Positions 11,275 through 53,238 of a stretch of DNA of 64,000 bases are shown here, piece after piece (within the stretch, counting starts at the first letter, position 1; every line of letters begins with the position of its first letter). The notes under the pieces were generated by a model. That model ran no database searches. It saw only the letters and a list, made by a program, of their open reading frames with translations, and was not told where the DNA came from. This DNA comes from Candidatus Omnitrophota bacterium (lineage in GTDB: Bacteria > Omnitrophota > Gorgyraeia > 2-01-FULL-45-10). A program made the translations under genes and the position numbers. Where the stretch lies: contig JBAZNZ010000009.1 in NCBI GenBank assembly GCA_041648975.1, forward strand, positions 1,033 to 65,032, read 5' to 3'.

Positions 11275-12159
11275 ATGAAAGAGAAGAGCTTAAAACTTAA
11301 ATTGGGCCTGCCCAAGGGTAGCCTCCAGGAGGCTACCGTAAGGATGTTCCGCAAGGCCGGCTTCTATGTCGGCATAAGCGAACGGTCTTATTTCCCGTCA
11401 ATAGACGACGACCGGATAGAGTGCATACTCTTCAGGGCGCAGGAGATGTCCCGCTATGTCGAGGATGGCATACTCGACGTAGGCATAACGGGCAACGACT
11501 GGATACTGGAGAACTCTTCCAATGTCGTGAGGGTCGCGGAACTGATATACGCGAAACAGAGCATGAGGCCGGTGAGATGGGTGCTTGCGGTCCCCCAGGA
11601 TTCCAAAATAAAAAGCGTAAAAGACCTTAAGGGCAAATCTATCGCCACAGAACTTGTCAATGTGACGAAATCCTATTTGAAGAAGAATAAAGTGAAGGCG
11701 AATGTCGAATTCAGCTGGGGCGCGACCGAAGTCAAGGCCATTGTCGGAGTGGACGCTATCGTAGAGGTCACGGAGACGGGGTCATCGCTTCGGGCGAACA
11801 AATTAAGGGAGATCGCTACGGTGTGCGAGTCGACGACTCAGCTCATCGTCAACAGGAAGAGCTGGATGATACCGTGGAAGAGGGACAAGATAGAGAACCT
11901 GGCGATGCTCCTGAAGGGCGCGATACTGGCCGAAGAGAAGGTGGGGCTTAAGATGAACGTCGCGAAGAAAGACCTGAAGGTCGTTCTGGGGCTTCTGCCG
12001 GCGATGAAGAAACCGACGATATCGAACCTTGTAGACTCCGACTGGGTCGATATAGATACGATAATAGACGAGAAGGTAGTGAAGGACCTGATACCGAAAT
12101 TGAAAAAAGCAGGCGCCGAGGGAATCATCGAGTACCCTTTAAACAAGGTGATTTATTAG
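11275..12159 (+). CDS. hisG: ATP phosphoribosyltransferase (long form)
   Basis: LGLPKGSL and GITGND motifs plus a C-terminal regulatory domain; 294 aa. Confidence 0.9.
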
Positions 12160-12169
12160 TCATAAATTC

Positions 12170-12295
12170 TAAGCACGAAATCCGAAATTCGAAACAAATT
12201 CAATCTTTCGAATTTTCAAAACTGCTGTTTTGGTCGTTTGAATTTTGGTTATTTGATGTTGTTTCGTATTTCGATATTCGTATTTCGGATTTATA
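12170..12295. repeat. long imperfect inverted repeat built from CGAAAT/ATTTCG words
   Basis: ACGAAATCCGAAATTCGAAACAA ... TTGTTTCGTATTTCGATATTCGTATTTCGGATT; lies between hisG and the bS22-like ORF. Confidence 0.55.
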
Positions 12296-12317
12296 GTTTA
12301 CTAGGAGGTGATATCCA

Positions 12318-12407
12318 ATGCCTTGCGGACGTAAGCGTAAAAGAGCGAAGATGGCGAAGCATAAAAGAAAAAAAAGGATGAGAAGAGACCGCCATAAAAA
12401 GAAATAA
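12318..12407 (+). CDS. bS22-like ribosomal small protein (29 aa, extremely basic)
   Basis: AGGAGGTG Shine-Dalgarno sequence 7 nt upstream of the ATG. The peptide MPCGRKRKRAKMAKHKRKKRMRRDRHKKK resembles the mycobacterial/Bacteroidetes bS22 sequence ([23 protein letters not shown]...) as recalled from memory. Absent from the ORF track because it is under 60 aa. Confidence 0.5.
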   Translation: MPCGRKRKRAKMAKHKRKKRMRRDRHKKK

Positions 12408-12472
12408 GTCGTAAGCTGTAAGTTGTAAGTTTTAAGTTAAAAGCTTACAACTTACGACTTACAGCTTATAAC
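12408..12472. repeat. word-built hairpin (GTAAG/CTTAC words)
   Basis: GTCGTAAGCTGTAAGTTGTAAGTTTTAAGTT | AAGCTTACAACTTACGACTTACAGCTTA; directly follows the bS22-like stop codon. Confidence 0.65.
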
Positions 12473-12498
12473 TAAACCTCTGTTTAAGAGTCACTATA

Positions 12499-14034
12499 GT
12501 GCGCGCGACAAAATATATATTTTCCCTGGCAGTTCTCATTACACTTCTAATATCCACGGTCGATTTAGATGCTGTAATAGACATTTCCGCCAAAAAAAAT
12601 CCGCTCTCGTTATGGGAAACGGTCGTCCAGAAGGTCCGCCCGACGAATGCGTTTTCCAGGTCGCTAGCCCATTTCACGATGGGCGTTATCAACGATAACG
12701 AGTCCAAGCCCGAAGACGCTATCCGGGAATACAAAGAGGCGATAGAGTCCGAGCCCGGCGTAAGCTACCTGCATACGAGGCTCGCCATAGATTATATACT
12801 TCTTAAGAAAGAAGACGACGCCGTCGAAGAATTGAAGACGGCCAAATCGCTTGACCCCTCCGACGTGAGGCCGAAGTTCCTCCTGGCGTTGACATATACG
12901 TCGCTGGGTATGCTTGAAGAGGCGCGCAGAGAGTACGAAGAGATAGCGCGGCTCGACCCGAACTCCATATGGGCGCTAAGTTCTTTGGCGGACATATTTG
13001 TATTACAGAAGAAGATGGCTGAGGCTGCCGCTGTATACGAGAAGCTTCTCGAGGATAAGAAAGACTCCGCCGTCCTGTATTTCAACCTTGCGGTCATCTA
13101 CTCGAGGATGGAGAGGACCGACGAGGCCATAGAGATGCTTAAAGAGGCGGTCTCGGTAGACGGCGAATACGTCGAGGCGTATATAGGGCTCGGCATATTA
13201 TATGAGATGAAAAAAGACCTCCCCGGCGCCATCCGTAATTTCGAAACGGCTCTTGAGAAAGATCCTCTGAATACGAAGCTATATCACCACATCGGCATCT
13301 TATACTATAAAGATAAGAAGGTAGACAGGGCGATAAAGAAATACGAGCTCTTGCTGAAGAATAATCCCAACGATCTCGACGCTTACATAGAGCTTTCGAA
13401 TATATATCTGGGCGAAAAGAGGCCGCAGGACGCGATAAAGGCGCTCGACGCCGCGTTGGAGAGGGGTTCGAAGGAAGCGAGCCTGTATATAGCCCTGGGA
13501 TTTACGTATACTGTCCTGGAGAGATACGATGAGGCGCTGAAGTTCTATAACACGGCGCTTGAGATAGATAGAGATGACCCGAAAGTCCATTTTTATCTCG
13601 GAGTCCTTTATGAAAAGAGAGGCGACAAAGAATTGGCCGCCGGAGAACTCAGGGAAGCGATAAGATTAGACCCGGATTTCGCGGACGCCTGTAATTACCT
13701 TGGGTACATGCTGGTAGAAAAGGGGGGAGCCTTGGACGAGGCCATCCTCCTTATAAAGAAGGCGCTGGAGACAGATCCCGATAATGCCGCTTATATAGAT
13801 TCTCTCGGATGGGCGTATTTTAAGAATGGCATGACGGATGAGGCGCTTACGGAATTGGAGAAGGCGTTAAAGCTGGAACCGGGCGATCCCGAAATAAGGG
13901 ACCATCTCGGTGAGGCGTACCTTAAGAAAGGTATGAAGGGTAGGGCAAGGGAAGAGTGGAAGAAGGCGCTCGAACTTAAACCCAGCAAGGATATGCAGGA
14001 TAAAATTAGAGAGAAGCTGAGAAAGGCAAGGTAG
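12499..14034 (+). CDS. secreted TPR-repeat protein
   Basis: N-terminal signal-like hydrophobic segment followed by about ten tetratricopeptide repeats. Confidence 0.7.
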   Translation: MRATKYIFSLAVLITLLISTVDLDAVIDISAKKNPLSLWETVVQKVRPTNAFSRSLAHFTMGVINDNESKPEDAIREYKEAIESEPGVSYLHTRLAIDYILLKKEDDAVEELKTAKSLDPSDVRPKFLLALTYTSLGMLEEARREYEEIARLDPNSIWALSSLADIFVLQKKMAEAAAVYEKLLEDKKDSAVLYFNLAVIYSRMERTDEAIEMLKEAVSVDGEYVEAYIGLGILYEMKKDLPGAIRNFETALEKDPLNTKLYHHIGILYYKDKKVDRAIKKYELLLKNNPNDLDAYIELSNIYLGEKRPQDAIKALDAALERGSKEASLYIALGFTYTVLERYDEALKFYNTALEIDRDDPKVHFYLGVLYEKRGDKELAAGELREAIRLDPDFADACNYLGYMLVEKGGALDEAILLIKKALETDPDNAAYIDSLGWAYFKNGMTDEALTELEKALKLEPGDPEIRDHLGEAYLKKGMKGRAREEWKKALELKPSKDMQDKIREKLRKAR

Positions 14035-14140
14035 GTTACGTAATGTTACGTAAAGTTAGTGAATGTTACGTAAGGTTACAAAAGTCTACTAACCTTACGT
14101 AACCTTAATTAACCTTCACTAGCCTTATGTAACCTTTTAA
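14035..14140. repeat. word-built hairpin (TTACGTAA/GGTTAC words)
   Basis: GTTACGTAATGTTACGTAAAGTTAGTGAATGTTACGTAAGGTTAC ... ACCTTACGTAACCTTAATTAACCTTCAC...; lies between the TPR gene and tkt-N. Confidence 0.65.
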
Positions 14141-14152
14141 TAGCGAGACCAC

Positions 14153-14986
14153 ATGAATAAACCCAACATATTAACTCTGAAAAAGAAAGCAGTAGATATA
14201 CGCAAAGACATCCTGAAGATGTTGATGATTGCCGGTTCGGGTCATACTGGCGGCAGCCTTTCCATCGTCGAGATATTGATCTCGTTATACTATTATAAAT
14301 TAAAACATAATCCAAAAGATCCCGGCTGGCAAGGGCGGGACAGATTTCTTTTGTCAAAAGGGCACGGATGCCCGGCGCACTACGCCGTCCTGGCCGATCT
14401 AGGATATTTCCCTAAAGATATGCTCTGGACGCTTCGCAAATTCGGCAGTAAACTGCAGGGCCACCCCCAGATAGGCCTGCCGGGAGTGGAAGTGTCGAGT
14501 GGTTCTCTGGGGCAGGGGCTGTCGATAGCGAACGGTATGGCGCTCGCCTCCCGCCTCGACAAGACAGGCATGAGGGTGTATTGCCTGATGGGCGACGGCG
14601 AGACGAACGAGGGCCAGGTATGGGAAGCGGCCATGACGTCAGCCCACTACAAGCTCGATAACGTATGCGCTATAATAGATTTCAACAAGCTGCAGATAGA
14701 CGGTTTTTGCTGCGACGTGATGGACATGGGGCCGTATATCCATAAATGGAAAGACTTCGGCTGGCATGCCATCGAAACAGACGGCCATGATATTGCCAAG
14801 CTGATGGACGCGCTCGATGAGGCCTCCGGCGTAAAAGGCAAACCGACTATAATCATAGCCCATACCATAAAAGGTAAAGGCGTTTCATTTGTAGAGAACA
14901 AGGCGGAATGGCACGGCGTAGCCCCGTCGAGGGATCAGTATGAACGGGCCATTGAAGAGTTGGATAAGCAGTTAAAAGGGCTCTAG
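14153..14986 (+). CDS. transketolase, N-terminal (thiamine-diphosphate-binding) subunit
   Basis: 277-aa ORF with GSGHTGGSLSIVEIL and GDGETNEG ThDP motifs; split-transketolase architecture. Confidence 0.9.
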   Translation: MNKPNILTLKKKAVDIRKDILKMLMIAGSGHTGGSLSIVEILISLYYYKLKHNPKDPGWQGRDRFLLSKGHGCPAHYAVLADLGYFPKDMLWTLRKFGSKLQGHPQIGLPGVEVSSGSLGQGLSIANGMALASRLDKTGMRVYCLMGDGETNEGQVWEAAMTSAHYKLDNVCAIIDFNKLQIDGFCCDVMDMGPYIHKWKDFGWHAIETDGHDIAKLMDALDEASGVKGKPTIIIAHTIKGKGVSFVENKAEWHGVAPSRDQYERAIEELDKQLKGL

Positions 14987-14990
14987 TTTC

Positions 14991-15056
14991 TTGAGTTATT
15001 TGCGTTTGTTGCGTTCAACGCAATAAACGCAATGAACTCAATGAACGCAATAAACC
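14991..15056. repeat. word-built hairpin (AACGCAA/TTGCGTT words)
   Basis: TTGAGTTATTTGCGTTTGTTGCGTT | AACGCAATAAACGCAATGAACTCAA; lies downstream of tkt-N. Confidence 0.65.
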
Positions 15057-20778: not shown

Positions 20779-20852
20779 TGCCCGGTGGTGTAATGGTAGC
20801 ACACCAGCCTTTGGAGCTGTGGGTCCTGGTTCGAATCCAGGCTGGGCAACCA
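20779..20852 (+). tRNA. tRNA-Gln (anticodon UUG)
   Basis: Cloverleaf folded by eye. Acceptor stem TGCCCGG/CTGGGCA with U1-A72 as in bacterial tRNA-Gln; anticodon loop CTTTGGA; T-arm GGTTCGAATCC; 3' CCA encoded. Confidence 0.85.
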
Positions 20853-20974: not shown

Positions 20975-22243
20975 ATGAAAAACATAACAGCGATTATACT
21001 TGCGGCGGGAAGAGGGACGAGGATGAAGTCCGACGTACCTAAGGTCCTTCATAAGATACTGGGGCGTCCTATCATCTCTTATGTGCTTGACGCTGTCGGG
21101 GACGCCGGTATTTCCAAGACGGTGACCGTCGCCGGATTCGGTATCGACAGACTTAAAGAGTTGTTAGGGGAAGAGACTAAAGTCGTTATCCAGAGGAAGC
21201 TCCTCGGCAGCGGCGACGCGGTCAAGACGGCAAAGAGGGTCCTTGGGAAACATCCCGGCGATATCCTCGTTATCTGCGGAGATACGCCGCTTATCAAGCC
21301 CCGGACGATAAAGGATATCATCGAAAGGCATAAGGCCGCCGGGGCAAGCGCCACCCTTCTGACGGTCAGGTTAAAAGATCCCGCAGGCTACGGCAGGATA
21401 ATACGGTCGAACGCCGGCAAGATAGTAAAGATCATGGAAGAGGAAGACGCCCATTCTTACGGCGAAGTTGTTAACGAAATTAACGTCGGCACTTATTGTT
21501 TTAAGGCAAAAGACCTTTTTGAAGCGCTATCCGGTATAAGGCCCAATAACAGGAAGAAAGAATTTTTCCTGACCGACGTAATAGAAATTCTGGGTAAAAA
21601 AGGTTTGCCGGTAGAAGCGGTTTCGGCCAAAGACGCGAGCGAGATGATAGGCATAAATACGAGAAAAGACCTGGCTGTTGCTACGGCTACAGTCAAGAGC
21701 AGGATATTGAACGAGCTTATGGACGCAGGCGTTACGATAGAAGACCCGCTATCGACCGTAATATATCCGGGCGCGAAGATCGGCCGCGATACGGTCATTT
21801 ACGCAAATACATATATAGAATCGGATGTGGAGATAGGCGCCTCCTGCCTTATAGGCCCTTTTACGCGGCTAAGAAAAGGCGTGCGTATAGGCAACCGTGT
21901 TGAGGTGGGGAATTTTGTGGAGCTTGTCAGGACAGAAGTGGGCGACGATACAAAGGTAAAACATCATACTTATCTTGGAGATACTAAGTTAGGGAAGTCA
22001 GCCAATATCGGCGCCGGCGTCATTACGGCAAACTACGACGGGAAGAATAAGAATAGGACCATTATAGAAGACGGAGCTTTCATAGGCGTCGGGGCCAGGC
22101 TGATAGCGCCCCTGTCGATCGGCAAAGGCGCAGTCGTCGGAGCAGGGGCAGTCGTGCCTAAGAACCACGATGTCCCGAAAGGCGCGACGGTGTTGGGCGT
22201 GCCGGCGAGGATATTAAAAAAAAGGTTACATAACGTTACGTAA
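20975..22243 (+). CDS. glmU: bifunctional UDP-N-acetylglucosamine pyrophosphorylase / glucosamine-1-phosphate N-acetyltransferase
   Basis: AIILAAGRGTRM nucleotidyltransferase motif followed by a C-terminal left-handed beta-helix hexapeptide-repeat domain. The ATG at 20975 is preferred over the TTG at 20945. Confidence 0.85.
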   Translation: MKNITAIILAAGRGTRMKSDVPKVLHKILGRPIISYVLDAVGDAGISKTVTVAGFGIDRLKELLGEETKVVIQRKLLGSGDAVKTAKRVLGKHPGDILVICGDTPLIKPRTIKDIIERHKAAGASATLLTVRLKDPAGYGRIIRSNAGKIVKIMEEEDAHSYGEVVNEINVGTYCFKAKDLFEALSGIRPNNRKKEFFLTDVIEILGKKGLPVEAVSAKDASEMIGINTRKDLAVATATVKSRILNELMDAGVTIEDPLSTVIYPGAKIGRDTVIYANTYIESDVEIGASCLIGPFTRLRKGVRIGNRVEVGNFVELVRTEVGDDTKVKHHTYLGDTKLGKSANIGAGVITANYDGKNKNRTIIEDGAFIGVGARLIAPLSIGKGAVVGAGAVVPKNHDVPKGATVLGVPARILKKRLHNVT

Positions 22244-22325
22244 GGTTAGCGAAGGTTACGTAACGTTAATAAAACTCAAGCAACCTTACATAACCTTAAT
22301 TAACTTTCACTACCATTACGTAACA
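22214..22325. repeat. word-built hairpin (TTACGTAA words) overlapping the glmU 3' end
   Basis: AAGGTTACATAACGTTACGTAAGGTTAGCGAAGGTTACGTAACGTTAAT ... AACCTTACATAACCTTAATTAAC..CATTACGTAACAT; the glmU stop codon TAA is part of a TTACGTAA word. Confidence 0.65.
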
Positions 22326-25490: not shown

Positions 25491-25570
25491 AGTTTAGTTA
25501 ATTGCGTTTATTGGGTTTGTTGGGTTAACGCAATGAACGCAAAAAACGCAACGAACACAATAAACTAACA
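25491..25570. repeat. word-built hairpin (AACGCAA words)
   Basis: AGTTTAGTTAATTGCGTTTATTGGGTTTGTTGGGTTAACGCAATGAACGCAAAAAACGCAACGAACACAATAAACTAACA; shares the word AACGCAATGAACGCAA with the hairpin at 14991. Confidence 0.65.
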
Positions 25571-26352: not shown

Positions 26353-26356
26353 ACAG

Positions 26357-26498
26357 CTTTGTGTAAAGTTTTATGTGTAATGTGTAATGTTGGTGTAATG
26401 TAGCTATGTGTAATGGAAAATTCGCTCTGTCTAATCTTTTTACATTAAACAATAACCCATTAAACTCGCTTTACACATTACACATTTAACATTACACA
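26357..26498. repeat. word-built hairpin (GTGTAATG/CATTACAC words), ~140 bp
   Basis: GTGTAAAGTTTTATGTGTAATGTGTAATGTTGGTGTAATGTAGCTATGTGTAATGG ... CTTTACACATTACACATTTAACATTACACAAA; lies between rplI and dnaB. Confidence 0.65.
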
Positions 26499-26501
26499 AA
26501 A

Positions 26502-27893
26502 TTGTTAGAGAGTGCTATGGCTCAAGAGTCGATAGAAAAGGTCCCGCCGCAAAACGTAGAAGCCGAGATAGCGGTCATCGGATCCATGCTCTTAGATCAC
26601 GACGCTATTTCGCAGGCCGTAGAGATATTGAATTCGGATTATTTCTATAAAGAATCCCACAGGAAATTATACTCCGCGATGTTAAGGCTCTTCGACGAGA
26701 ACAAGGCCGTCGACATCATAACGGTCATGGAAGAGCTCAAGAAGACAAACTCACTTGATGACGCAGGCGGCCCGGCCTACATATCGAGCCTCGCGTCGGC
26801 CGTCCCTACCACAGCAAATTTTGTCCATTACGCTAAGATAGTCAAGGAAAAGGCCCTTCTCAGAAACCTCATTAATACAGCCACCCAGATAGTCACCGAA
26901 TGTTATGATACCACCATGGACGCCGATACGCTTGTGGACAAGGCGGAACAGCGCATATTCGACGTTACATCCAAGAAAGTGGAATCCAGGTTCGTCTCCC
27001 TTAGAGAAGTCATAAAAGATTCCATAGAGACCATAGACAACCTTTACCAGAGAAAAGAGAATATTACCGGCATAGCTACCGGCTACAGGGAACTCGATAT
27101 GAGGACCGCCGGGCTGCAGCCCTCTGACCTGGTGGTTATAGCGGGCCGTCCTTCGATGGGTAAAAGCGCGCTGGCTTCATGCATAGTGGAGCATGCGGGC
27201 GTTATCGAAAAAGAGCCGGTCGCGTTCTTCAGCCTTGAAATGTCCAAAGAACAGCTCGTCCAGAGGATGCTATGTTCGCACGCGAGAGTCGACGCGCATA
27301 AGGTCAGGACGGGTTTTCTGTCCCAGGCGGATTGGCCGAGGCTCGTCAGCGCGGCCGGAAAGTTATCGGAAGCGCCTATCTACATAGATGATTCACCGGG
27401 CATAACGGTCCTGGAGCTGAGGGCTAAGGCACGGCGGCTAAAGGCCCAGTTCGATATTAAATTGATAGTGCTCGATTATCTCCAGCTTATGCAGGGGCCC
27501 GCTAGATCCGAATCGAGGCAGCAGGAGATATCCGAGATATCCAGGTCGCTGAAGGCTATAGCCAAAGAGTTGAAGGTGCCGCTCATCGCTATAAGCCAGT
27601 TGTCGCGCGCTGTGGAGCAAAGGTCCGACCACAGGCCCCAGCTTTCCGACTTGAGGGAGTCGGGCGCTATTGAACAGGATGCCGACCTGGTGCTGCTTCT
27701 CTTGAGAGAGGAGTATTACAACCCGACCGATGAGAACAAGGGTATTGCGGAGGTCATAATAGCTAAGCAGAGGAACGGCCCAGTAGGGAGCCTGAACCTC
27801 GCGTTTCTCGGAGAGTATATGCGTTTTGAGAACATTGCCCAGAAGTCGGAAGATTTTGTCGACGTGGATATGGAAAAGATGGAGAGAGTGTGA
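26502..27893 (+). CDS. dnaB: replicative DNA helicase
   Basis: 463-aa ORF with Walker A GRPSMGKSA and RecA-like motifs; no intein seen. Confidence 0.9.
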   Translation: MLESAMAQESIEKVPPQNVEAEIAVIGSMLLDHDAISQAVEILNSDYFYKESHRKLYSAMLRLFDENKAVDIITVMEELKKTNSLDDAGGPAYISSLASAVPTTANFVHYAKIVKEKALLRNLINTATQIVTECYDTTMDADTLVDKAEQRIFDVTSKKVESRFVSLREVIKDSIETIDNLYQRKENITGIATGYRELDMRTAGLQPSDLVVIAGRPSMGKSALASCIVEHAGVIEKEPVAFFSLEMSKEQLVQRMLCSHARVDAHKVRTGFLSQADWPRLVSAAGKLSEAPIYIDDSPGITVLELRAKARRLKAQFDIKLIVLDYLQLMQGPARSESRQQEISEISRSLKAIAKELKVPLIAISQLSRAVEQRSDHRPQLSDLRESGAIEQDADLVLLLLREEYYNPTDENKGIAEVIIAKQRNGPVGSLNLAFLGEYMRFENIAQKSEDFVDVDMEKMERV

Positions 27894-30208: not shown

Positions 30209-30215
30209 GGGCGTA

Positions 30216-30247
30216 GTTATAAGTCGTAAGTTTTAAGTTGTAAGATA
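30216..30247. repeat. short word-built hairpin (GTAAG words)
   Basis: TTATAAGTCGTAAGTTTTAAGTTGTAAGATAA; lies downstream of bamA. Confidence 0.45.
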
Positions 30248-30256
30248 AAAAAATAG

Positions 30257-42865: not shown

Positions 42866-42934
42866 CAGTTGTAAGCTATAAGTTGTAAGTCATAAATTTT
42901 TGTCTTACAACTTAAAACTTACGACTTACAACTA
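42866..42934. repeat. word-built hairpin (GTAAG/CTTAC words)
   Basis: AGTTGTAAGCTATAAGTTGTAAGTCATAAA | TTTTTGTCTTACAACTTAAAACTTACGACTTACAACT; runs right up to the pyrH ATG. Confidence 0.65.
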
Positions 42935-44339: not shown

Positions 44340-44415
44340 GGGCCACTAGCTCATCTGGCAGAGCACCACACTTTTAATGTGGTTGCGGTTGGTTCGAGTC
44401 CAACGTGGCCCACCA
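44340..44415 (+). tRNA. tRNA-Lys (anticodon UUU)
   Basis: Acceptor stem GGGCCAC/GTGGCCC, D-arm TAGCTCATCTGGCAGAGCA, anticodon loop CTTTTAA, T-arm GGTTCGAGTCC, CCA encoded. Confidence 0.85.
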
Positions 44416-53176: not shown

Positions 53177-53222
53177 AAGGTTACGTAACCTTAATTAACC
53201 TTCCCTAACATTACGTAACATA
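53177..53222. repeat. word-built palindrome (GGTTACGTAACC) in the lexA 5' UTR
   Basis: AAGGTTACGTAACCTTAATTAACCTTCCCTAACATTACGTAACAT; contains the perfect 20-bp palindrome TTAAGGTTACGTAACCTTAA. Confidence 0.6.
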
Positions 53223-53238
53223 AACAAGGGGCTCTATC

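Follow-up and report, generated by a model that had tools for sequence, protein, structure and literature searches.

An ORF of unusual composition next to hisG

Does a 29-codon open reading frame (ORF) located between hisG and the gene of a TPR-repeat protein in a Candidatus Omnitrophota bacterium encode a protein, and does this protein belong to the ribosome? This question is raised by a 64,000-nucleotide stretch of DNA, referred to here as the window, for which an initial annotation had proposed a bS22-like, extremely basic micro-protein bracketed by hairpin repeats. As detailed below, we consider the ORF, judging from its sequence and that of its relatives, to be very probably the bS22 gene of this bacterium. 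The features of the locus are listed in Table 1.

Table 1 Features of the hisG-bS22 locus in the window
Feature	Coordinates	Strand	Evidence or details
hisG, ATP phosphoribosyltransferase, long form; conserved upstream neighbor	11275..12159	+	Pfam HisG (4.3e-45), HisG_C (3.7e-24)
Long imperfect palindrome (CGAAAT-type heptamer words), 3' of the hisG stop codon and 5' of the bS22 Shine-Dalgarno sequence	12162..12294	+	Arms 12162-12203 and 12253-12294
Shine-Dalgarno sequence AGGAGGTG, 7 nt 5' of the start codon	12303..12310	+	Read in the sequence
Very probable bS22-family CDS, 29 aa, MPCGRKRKRAKMAKHKRKKRMRRDRHKKK, TAA stop included	12318..12407	+	ORF list, PDB matches, shuffles, HMM, orthologues
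Near-perfect hairpin of GTAAG heptamer words, beginning at the bS22 stop codon	12404..12473	+	Arms 12407-12436 and 12444-12473
TPR-repeat protein, conserved downstream neighbor; context only, no functional link claimed	12499..14034	+	Pfam TPR families

The sequence and the ORF list confirmed the reading frame, its translation from the ATG at 12318 to the TAA ending at 12407, and the Shine-Dalgarno sequence exactly as the initial annotation had given them. Since an in-frame TGA (12309-12311) is found two codons 5' of this ATG, the latter is the sole possible start. An ORF of 29 codons is by itself unremarkable, and the region from 9 to 16 kb is overlapped by 66 ORFs with 25 or more aa. The peptide contains 18 Lys and Arg among its 29 residues (62%) and another two His, and a Lys/Arg/His content of at least 55% was found in only three ORFs of 20 to 45 aa across the whole window. 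The rarity of the ORF is thus in its composition and not in its length.

Rfam matches at the gathering threshold were limited to two tRNA genes on the plus strand (20779-20849 and 44340-44412), and no rRNA was detected by Rfam in the 64 kb. Nearly all long ORFs of the window are on the plus strand, the GC skew is positive in almost every 2-kb bin, and the cumulative skew rises monotonically from position 1 to 64000. Strand bias and skew fit a stretch of leading strand from a single replichore.

Similarity to bS22 chains of known structure

The window peptide was compared by phmmer with all PDB chain sequences (177,635). Exactly three matches were obtained, all of them bS22 chains of cryo-EM ribosomes that align without gaps to residues 1 to 29, namely, chain 10 of 9I5V from Porphyromonas gingivalis (E 7e-6), chain 5 of 7JIL from Flavobacterium johnsoniae (Fjoh_1533; E 1e-5), and chain V of 8FMW from Borreliella burgdorferi (bb0822; E 1.2e-5). 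Identities amount to 20/28, 20/28, and 18/27 residues, respectively, or 62 to 69% over the full length of the peptide, and these chains of two other phyla have been modeled in the ribosome. A profile of 19 orthologues retrieved the same bS22 chains with E values from 2.8e-11 to 3.2e-10 and gave a weak match to mS38 (E 0.29). No direct significant pairwise match to mycobacterial bS22 was obtained in the phmmer search of the PDB.

The HMMER bias in the PDB search amounted to approximately 12 to 14 bits, and low-complexity basic peptides inflate similarity scores. Because such peptides could match by composition alone, 100,000 shuffled versions with the composition of the window peptide served as a control. 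The ungapped BLOSUM62 scores against the three solved chains are 105 to 111, the best shuffle reached 72, and none of the 100,000 shuffles matched the observed score or identity count; the similarity to the bS22 chains is therefore not an effect of composition. An HMM was then built from only the three solved chains and run on the window and 80 related loci (1.22 Mb), translated in six frames and divided at stop codons into 32,001 segments. It returned 54 matches, one per locus and all on the strand of hisG. The window ORF was retrieved with an E value of 1e-10 (42.5 bits), and no second match was present in any of the six frames of the 64-kb window. The bS22-like reading of the ORF is thus upheld by full-length, ungapped similarity to three cryo-EM chains, along with the conservation at a fixed locus described below.

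The initial annotation had suggested a search with bS22/DUF1713 models, which gave a divided answer: the HMM of the solved chains recognizes the peptide, and the curated models do not. Pfam PF08213 (COX24_C/DUF1713) scored 10.8 bits (E 0.49), below its gathering threshold of 23, and the NCBIfam equivalog NF047430 (ribo_bS22, cutoff 34 bits) had no match to the peptide at E values up to 10. The positive controls 8FMW_V, 7JIL_5, and 9I5V_10 had no NF047430 match either; PF08213 returned nothing for the Borreliella and Flavobacterium chains and 11.7 bits for that of Porphyromonas. Since these solved chains, which start with MPxG, give no match, NF047430 covers only the actinobacterial-type subfamily, and since the solved MPxG-type chains fail the same two models, the failure of the window peptide is weak counterevidence. 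The lack of an HMM hit, which the initial annotation had offered as a ground for refutation, is accordingly a misleading test when read from PF08213 and NF047430.

Positional orthologues and subtypes of the family

Related loci were fetched via the neighboring hisG, with one genome per GTDB species, resulting in 80 loci, which are designated below by L numbers. The closest of these, with 84 to 89% HisG identity, are from Candidatus Omnitrophota metagenome-assembled genomes (MAGs). Orthologues were searched for by motif and composition and then with the HMM of the three solved chains. Outside the window, a bS22 ORF was found in 53 of the 80 hisG loci, including all 31 labeled Omnitrophota, where it is on the same strand and 10 to 280 nt downstream of hisG (a contig end truncates one of them). 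It also follows hisG in MAGs labeled Verrucomicrobiota or Lentisphaerae; the loci with the order hisG-bS22 are L001 to L053 (Omnitrophota) and L062, L066 to L068, L070, and L080 (labeled Verrucomicrobiota, Lentisphaerae, and others). Within 10 kb of hisG, bS22 was absent in MAGs labeled KSB1, Phycisphaerales, and Thermoguttaceae. The taxon labels of MAGs are often unreliable, an example being "uncultured Planctomycetales." The conservation in related genomes for which the initial annotation had asked is thus present.

Three forms can be distinguished in the alignment of the positional orthologues. (i) The MPCG short form, which includes the clade of the window, has 28 to 31 aa and ends in ...DRHKKK. 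(ii) The MPCG long form has 33 to 36 aa and ends in ...RHLKKRAWG, or more fully ...LRHLKKRAWG(GKG); both MPCG forms occur within Omnitrophota (alignment with L008 to L053). (iii) The MGS form occurs in MAGs labeled Verrucomicrobiota and Lentisphaerae. In its conserved Trp-containing tail, the Omnitrophota long form is similar to the Verrucomicrobiota-labeled form, which ends in ...KKRTWQK. Nine residues are invariant across the subtypes, namely, M1, K6, K11, H15, K16, R17, K19, R25, and H26; the last six are invariant in 19 orthologues of the three subtypes.

By its sequence, the window peptide is assigned to the MPxG subtype known from Borrelia and Bacteroidota. Two positional orthologues connect it to the classical family. 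That of L028 shows 76% identity to the window peptide and, with 23.4 bits, exceeds the PF08213 cutoff of 23. That of L070 passes PF08213 with 31.3 bits and matches, in an ungapped register, both Flavobacterium bS22 (4.4e-4) and mycobacterial bS22 (1.7e-4). These intermediates therefore bridge the window peptide to the classical family. The likeness to mycobacterial bS22 that the initial annotation had noted accordingly holds for the family but not for the subtype, in that the closest proteins are the MPxG forms of Borreliella and Bacteroidota, and the mycobacterial MGSV form is linked via intermediates only. Through the ungapped L070 alignment, K16 of the window peptide aligns with the mycobacterial Lys16, which contacts the h44 backbone (PMC10081302).

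Predicted role and comparison with known bS22 proteins

By analogy with the solved ribosomes (PMC10618245, PMC7797042, PMC12123416, PMC10081302), the 29-residue peptide, 62% of which is Lys or Arg, would fold as a bent helix. It is predicted to occupy the pocket that h2, h27, h44, and h45 of the 16S rRNA form beside the decoding center and the aminoglycoside site, and its C terminus would touch H68 and H70 of the 23S rRNA as an extra intersubunit bridge. According to the ungapped alignments, the invariant Lys16 would correspond to the h44-contacting Lys16 of mycobacteria.

A comparison with the known systems shows the following. (i) Borreliella bb0822 (8FMW, chain V) has 28 aa, compared to 29 in the window peptide, with an identical MPCGRKRK N terminus and with HKRKK and RHKK common to both; its Lys and Arg content is 61% (PMC10618245). 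It was likewise unannotated in its own genome, where it was found only via cryo-EM density, having escaped standard MS, and it is a candidate essential gene (PMC10618245). It differs in its GUG start, as opposed to the ATG with a strong Shine-Dalgarno sequence here, and in its genomic context; the Omnitrophota gene follows hisG. (ii) The Bacteroidota proteins (Fjoh_1533 in 7JIL; P. gingivalis in 9I5V/9I5X) have 30 aa of the pattern MPSG/MPNG-KKRKRHK-ATHKRKKR-NRHKKK, which aligns without gaps, and were "hypothetical proteins" before the structures were available (PMC7797042, PMC12123416). Their position 3 is Ser or Asn, whereas it is Cys in the window peptide, and Bacteroidota ribosomes ignore Shine-Dalgarno sequences, whereas the window gene has a canonical one. 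(iii) Actinobacterial bS22 (M. smegmatis MSMEG_0945 and M. tuberculosis Rv0550B; 5O5J and others; NF047430) can be placed in one family with the window peptide through ungapped alignments to the intermediates L070 and L028, but has 33 aa, another N terminus, and a different C-terminal half. (iv) The C-terminal domain of mitochondrial mS38/AURKAIP1/Cox24 (PF08213) and eukaryotic eL41 are also basic helical peptides in an equivalent small-subunit pocket (PMC10618245, PMC10081302); mS38, however, is a protein of 100 to 500 aa with the motif at its C terminus, and its relationship to the window peptide is distant.

Of the other ways to account for the ORF, the one that survives best accepts the homology and questions the location, proposing that this is a real bS22-homologous basic micro-protein that works off the ribosome, for example, as a nucleic-acid-binding or -condensing peptide or as an assembly chaperone. 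Its support comes from Mycobacterium smegmatis, in which bS22 is nonessential, its loss causing no growth defect, and modulates aminoglycoside sensitivity (PMC10081302); with the protein dispensable there, the constraint on a ribosomal role is therefore not absolute. We nevertheless consider an off-ribosome role very unlikely in view of the high full-length identity to ribosome-modeled chains of two other phyla, the retention of the cross-subtype invariant residues, K16 included, and the rRNA pocket, which has been described as structurally conserved (PMC10618245).

Purifying selection on the peptide

The pattern of nucleotide changes was analyzed in the relatives. In four of them the encoded 29-aa peptide is identical in spite of nucleotide differences, which number 17 in L003, 11 in L004, 9 in L006, and 13 in L011. 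Over 40 relatives, the pooled pN/pS is 0.28, and differences were found at 575 third, 310 first, and 246 second codon positions. The unchanged peptide despite nucleotide differences, the pN/pS value, and the excess at third positions therefore identify a protein-coding gene under purifying selection, and we conclude that 12318-12407 is genuinely protein coding and that the purifying selection on it is strong. In nearly all MPCG-type orthologues, a GGAG/GAGG motif is found within 20 nt upstream of the start.

The notion of a chance ORF without a protein product in the purine-rich DNA between hisG and the TPR gene could draw on the abundance of short ORFs in these 7 kb and on the curated HMMs without a significant match, but it has next to no probability given the same position and strand in 53 related loci, the conserved Shine-Dalgarno sequence, the identity of the peptide in four relatives in spite of 9 to 17 nucleotide changes, and the outcome of the shuffle control. 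The synonymous substitution pattern and the positional conservation led us to reject it.

Linkage to hisG

The order of a SurA-like gene on the minus strand followed by hisG, bS22, the TPR gene, and transketolase-N is kept in most Omnitrophota loci, as determined by tblastn synteny. The spacer between hisG and bS22 is only 10 to 30 nt in many relatives, and these short spacers imply an ancestral cotranscription of both genes. In the scenario that we propose, hisG was probably the ancestral operon partner of bS22, which would have been cotranscribed and perhaps translationally coupled with it; in this genome, the insertion of a 133-nt palindrome would have separated the two genes, and the bS22 stop codon is followed by another palindrome, a member of a dispersed family. 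A consensus promoter scan retrieved no plus-strand promoter between hisG and bS22.

The tight adjacency, together with a linkage conserved across phyla, might also suggest a hisG-linked regulatory peptide or a coupled leader-type ORF, of which the translation matters more than the product. Such a reading is hardly credible, as selection acts on the amino acid sequence and not on the mere presence of an ORF, the ORF is downstream and not upstream of hisG and contains two His codons only, the homologues of Borreliella, Bacteroidota, and Actinobacteria are ribosomal, and the gene is 2.8 to 4.1 kb downstream of hisG in L056, L074, and L075.

In two related loci, runs of N are located exactly at the hisG/bS22 junction (L007, 3258-3357; L013, about 1140-1240), and in L013 the 3' end of hisG seems to be duplicated past the gap. 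These runs and the duplication therefore suggest that the repeat-rich junction breaks assemblies.

Flanking palindromes

The palindrome upstream of bS22 has 42-nt arms that are 76% complementary (dG -38.8 kcal/mol, z -5.1), and blastn-short found no further copy of it in the 64-kb window. It is missing in the close relatives L002, L004, L005, L006, and L011, in which the hisG-bS22 spacer of only 18 to 55 nt leaves no room for it. Compared with these sequences, it is an apparent lineage-specific insertion, and it likely forms a stem-loop at the 3' end of hisG or in the 5' untranslated region of bS22. The downstream hairpin has 30-nt arms that are 87% complementary (dG -36.8 kcal/mol, z -10.3) and is not followed by a T-run. 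It is likely a terminator or a 3' mRNA-stabilizing stem-loop without a U-tract. Neither flanking hairpin was called a terminator in a consensus terminator scan, and Rfam returned no known family for the flanks, only eukaryotic microRNA hairpin models below threshold.

Using the list of inverted repeats and blastn-short, we found related copies of the downstream hairpin at 30214-30251 and 42867-42933. A second palindrome family in the window comprises 14033-14136, 22222-22324, and 53177-53224, and a third comprises 14986-15046 and 25497-25556. Nearly all of these directly follow the ends of plus-strand genes; the one at 53177 is located just upstream of an ORF. A further word-built palindrome is present at 26353-26505, and the arms of the palindromes consist of tandem words of 7 to 11 nt (GTAAG, GTTACGTAA, GCGTT, TGTAATG). 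In a sliding-window MFE scan of the whole 64 kb, the palindromes did not stand out from the noise, as GC-rich coding DNA folds equally well. Omnitrophota relatives carry palindromes of different words at the same junctions, and those found are unrelated to the ones of the window: GGGTC/TAGGG in L001 and L007, AAAAGT in L019 and L021, GAACAGA in L013, and GTAAGT/GTGGAA in L037.

Both bracketing hairpins noted in the initial annotation therefore exist, but their special tie to bS22 was not sustained, since they are not conserved and similar palindromes follow many other genes. From this nonconservation and the copies at other gene ends, we infer that the bracketing reflects a genome-wide, fast-evolving REP-like feature. 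The flanking hairpins probably act as generic transcript-end or stabilizing stem-loops and not as bS22-specific regulators. What we take to be the points of likeness to REPs are the intergenic location at gene 3' ends, the strong stem-loops, the dispersed multicopy nature, and the rapid turnover between relatives; arms of 30 to 68 nt made of tandem words of 7 to 11 nt are presumably longer than, and unlike, those of classical REPs. The word-built palindromes have a REP-like appearance and may represent a kind of element or terminator not yet described for Omnitrophota. Strong palindromes on both sides, the downstream one from a dispersed family, could also be taken for a small mobile cassette, with the repeats mobilizing or specifically regulating the gene that they bracket. 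This has a negligible probability: the upstream and the downstream palindrome show no relationship, the gene stays at its locus in relatives that have no hairpins or quite different ones and spacers of 13 to 280 nt, and similar palindromes follow unrelated genes at 30214, 42867, 14033, and 22222.

Two bolder proposals, which we regard as unlikely, can be added to the preferred reading of the ORF as bS22. The pair hisG-bS22 could function as an operon in which the supply of a decoding-center ribosomal protein is tied to expression of the first, ATP- and PRPP-consuming enzyme of histidine synthesis and which was uncoupled secondarily by the word-repeat palindrome in the lineage of the window. 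Independently of this, the palindromes made of words could constitute a class of terminators or mobile extragenic elements in Omnitrophota that has not been described before.

Annotation status and implications

A collection of 15 billion proteins contains neither the exact window peptide nor four other forms of at most 31 aa. Omnitrophota forms of 33 aa are present in this collection under the name "hypothetical protein," and the NCBI name of the Verrucomicrobiota form is "AURKAIP1/COX24 domain-containing protein." The claim that the gene would be missed by standard annotation is supported indirectly, by the absence of the exact peptide from the 15 billion proteins even though the four public MAGs with an identical peptide named above encode it. 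None of the papers in the literature searched names bS22 along with Omnitrophota, Verrucomicrobia, or Planctomycetes. The gap in scope between NF047430 and PF08213 on the one hand and MPxG-type bS22 on the other probably causes widespread underannotation.

The bS22 family and the biology of the protein are known; new is the phylum-level member in Omnitrophota, which is of the MPxG subtype. The family, for a long time considered specific to Actinobacteria before Bacteroidota and Borreliella were added, now extends to Omnitrophota and to relatives labeled Verrucomicrobiota and Lentisphaerae. Its protein adjoins the decoding center and the aminoglycoside-binding site and contributes an intersubunit bridge. 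Of interest is chiefly the annotation gap, followed by the conserved linkage to hisG and the word-built palindromes. This gap is systematic, in that forms of at most 31 aa are not called, forms of 33 aa are "hypothetical," and solved MPxG proteins are not recognized by the Pfam and NCBIfam models. An MPxG-specific model would correct the inventories of ribosomal proteins in many phyla.
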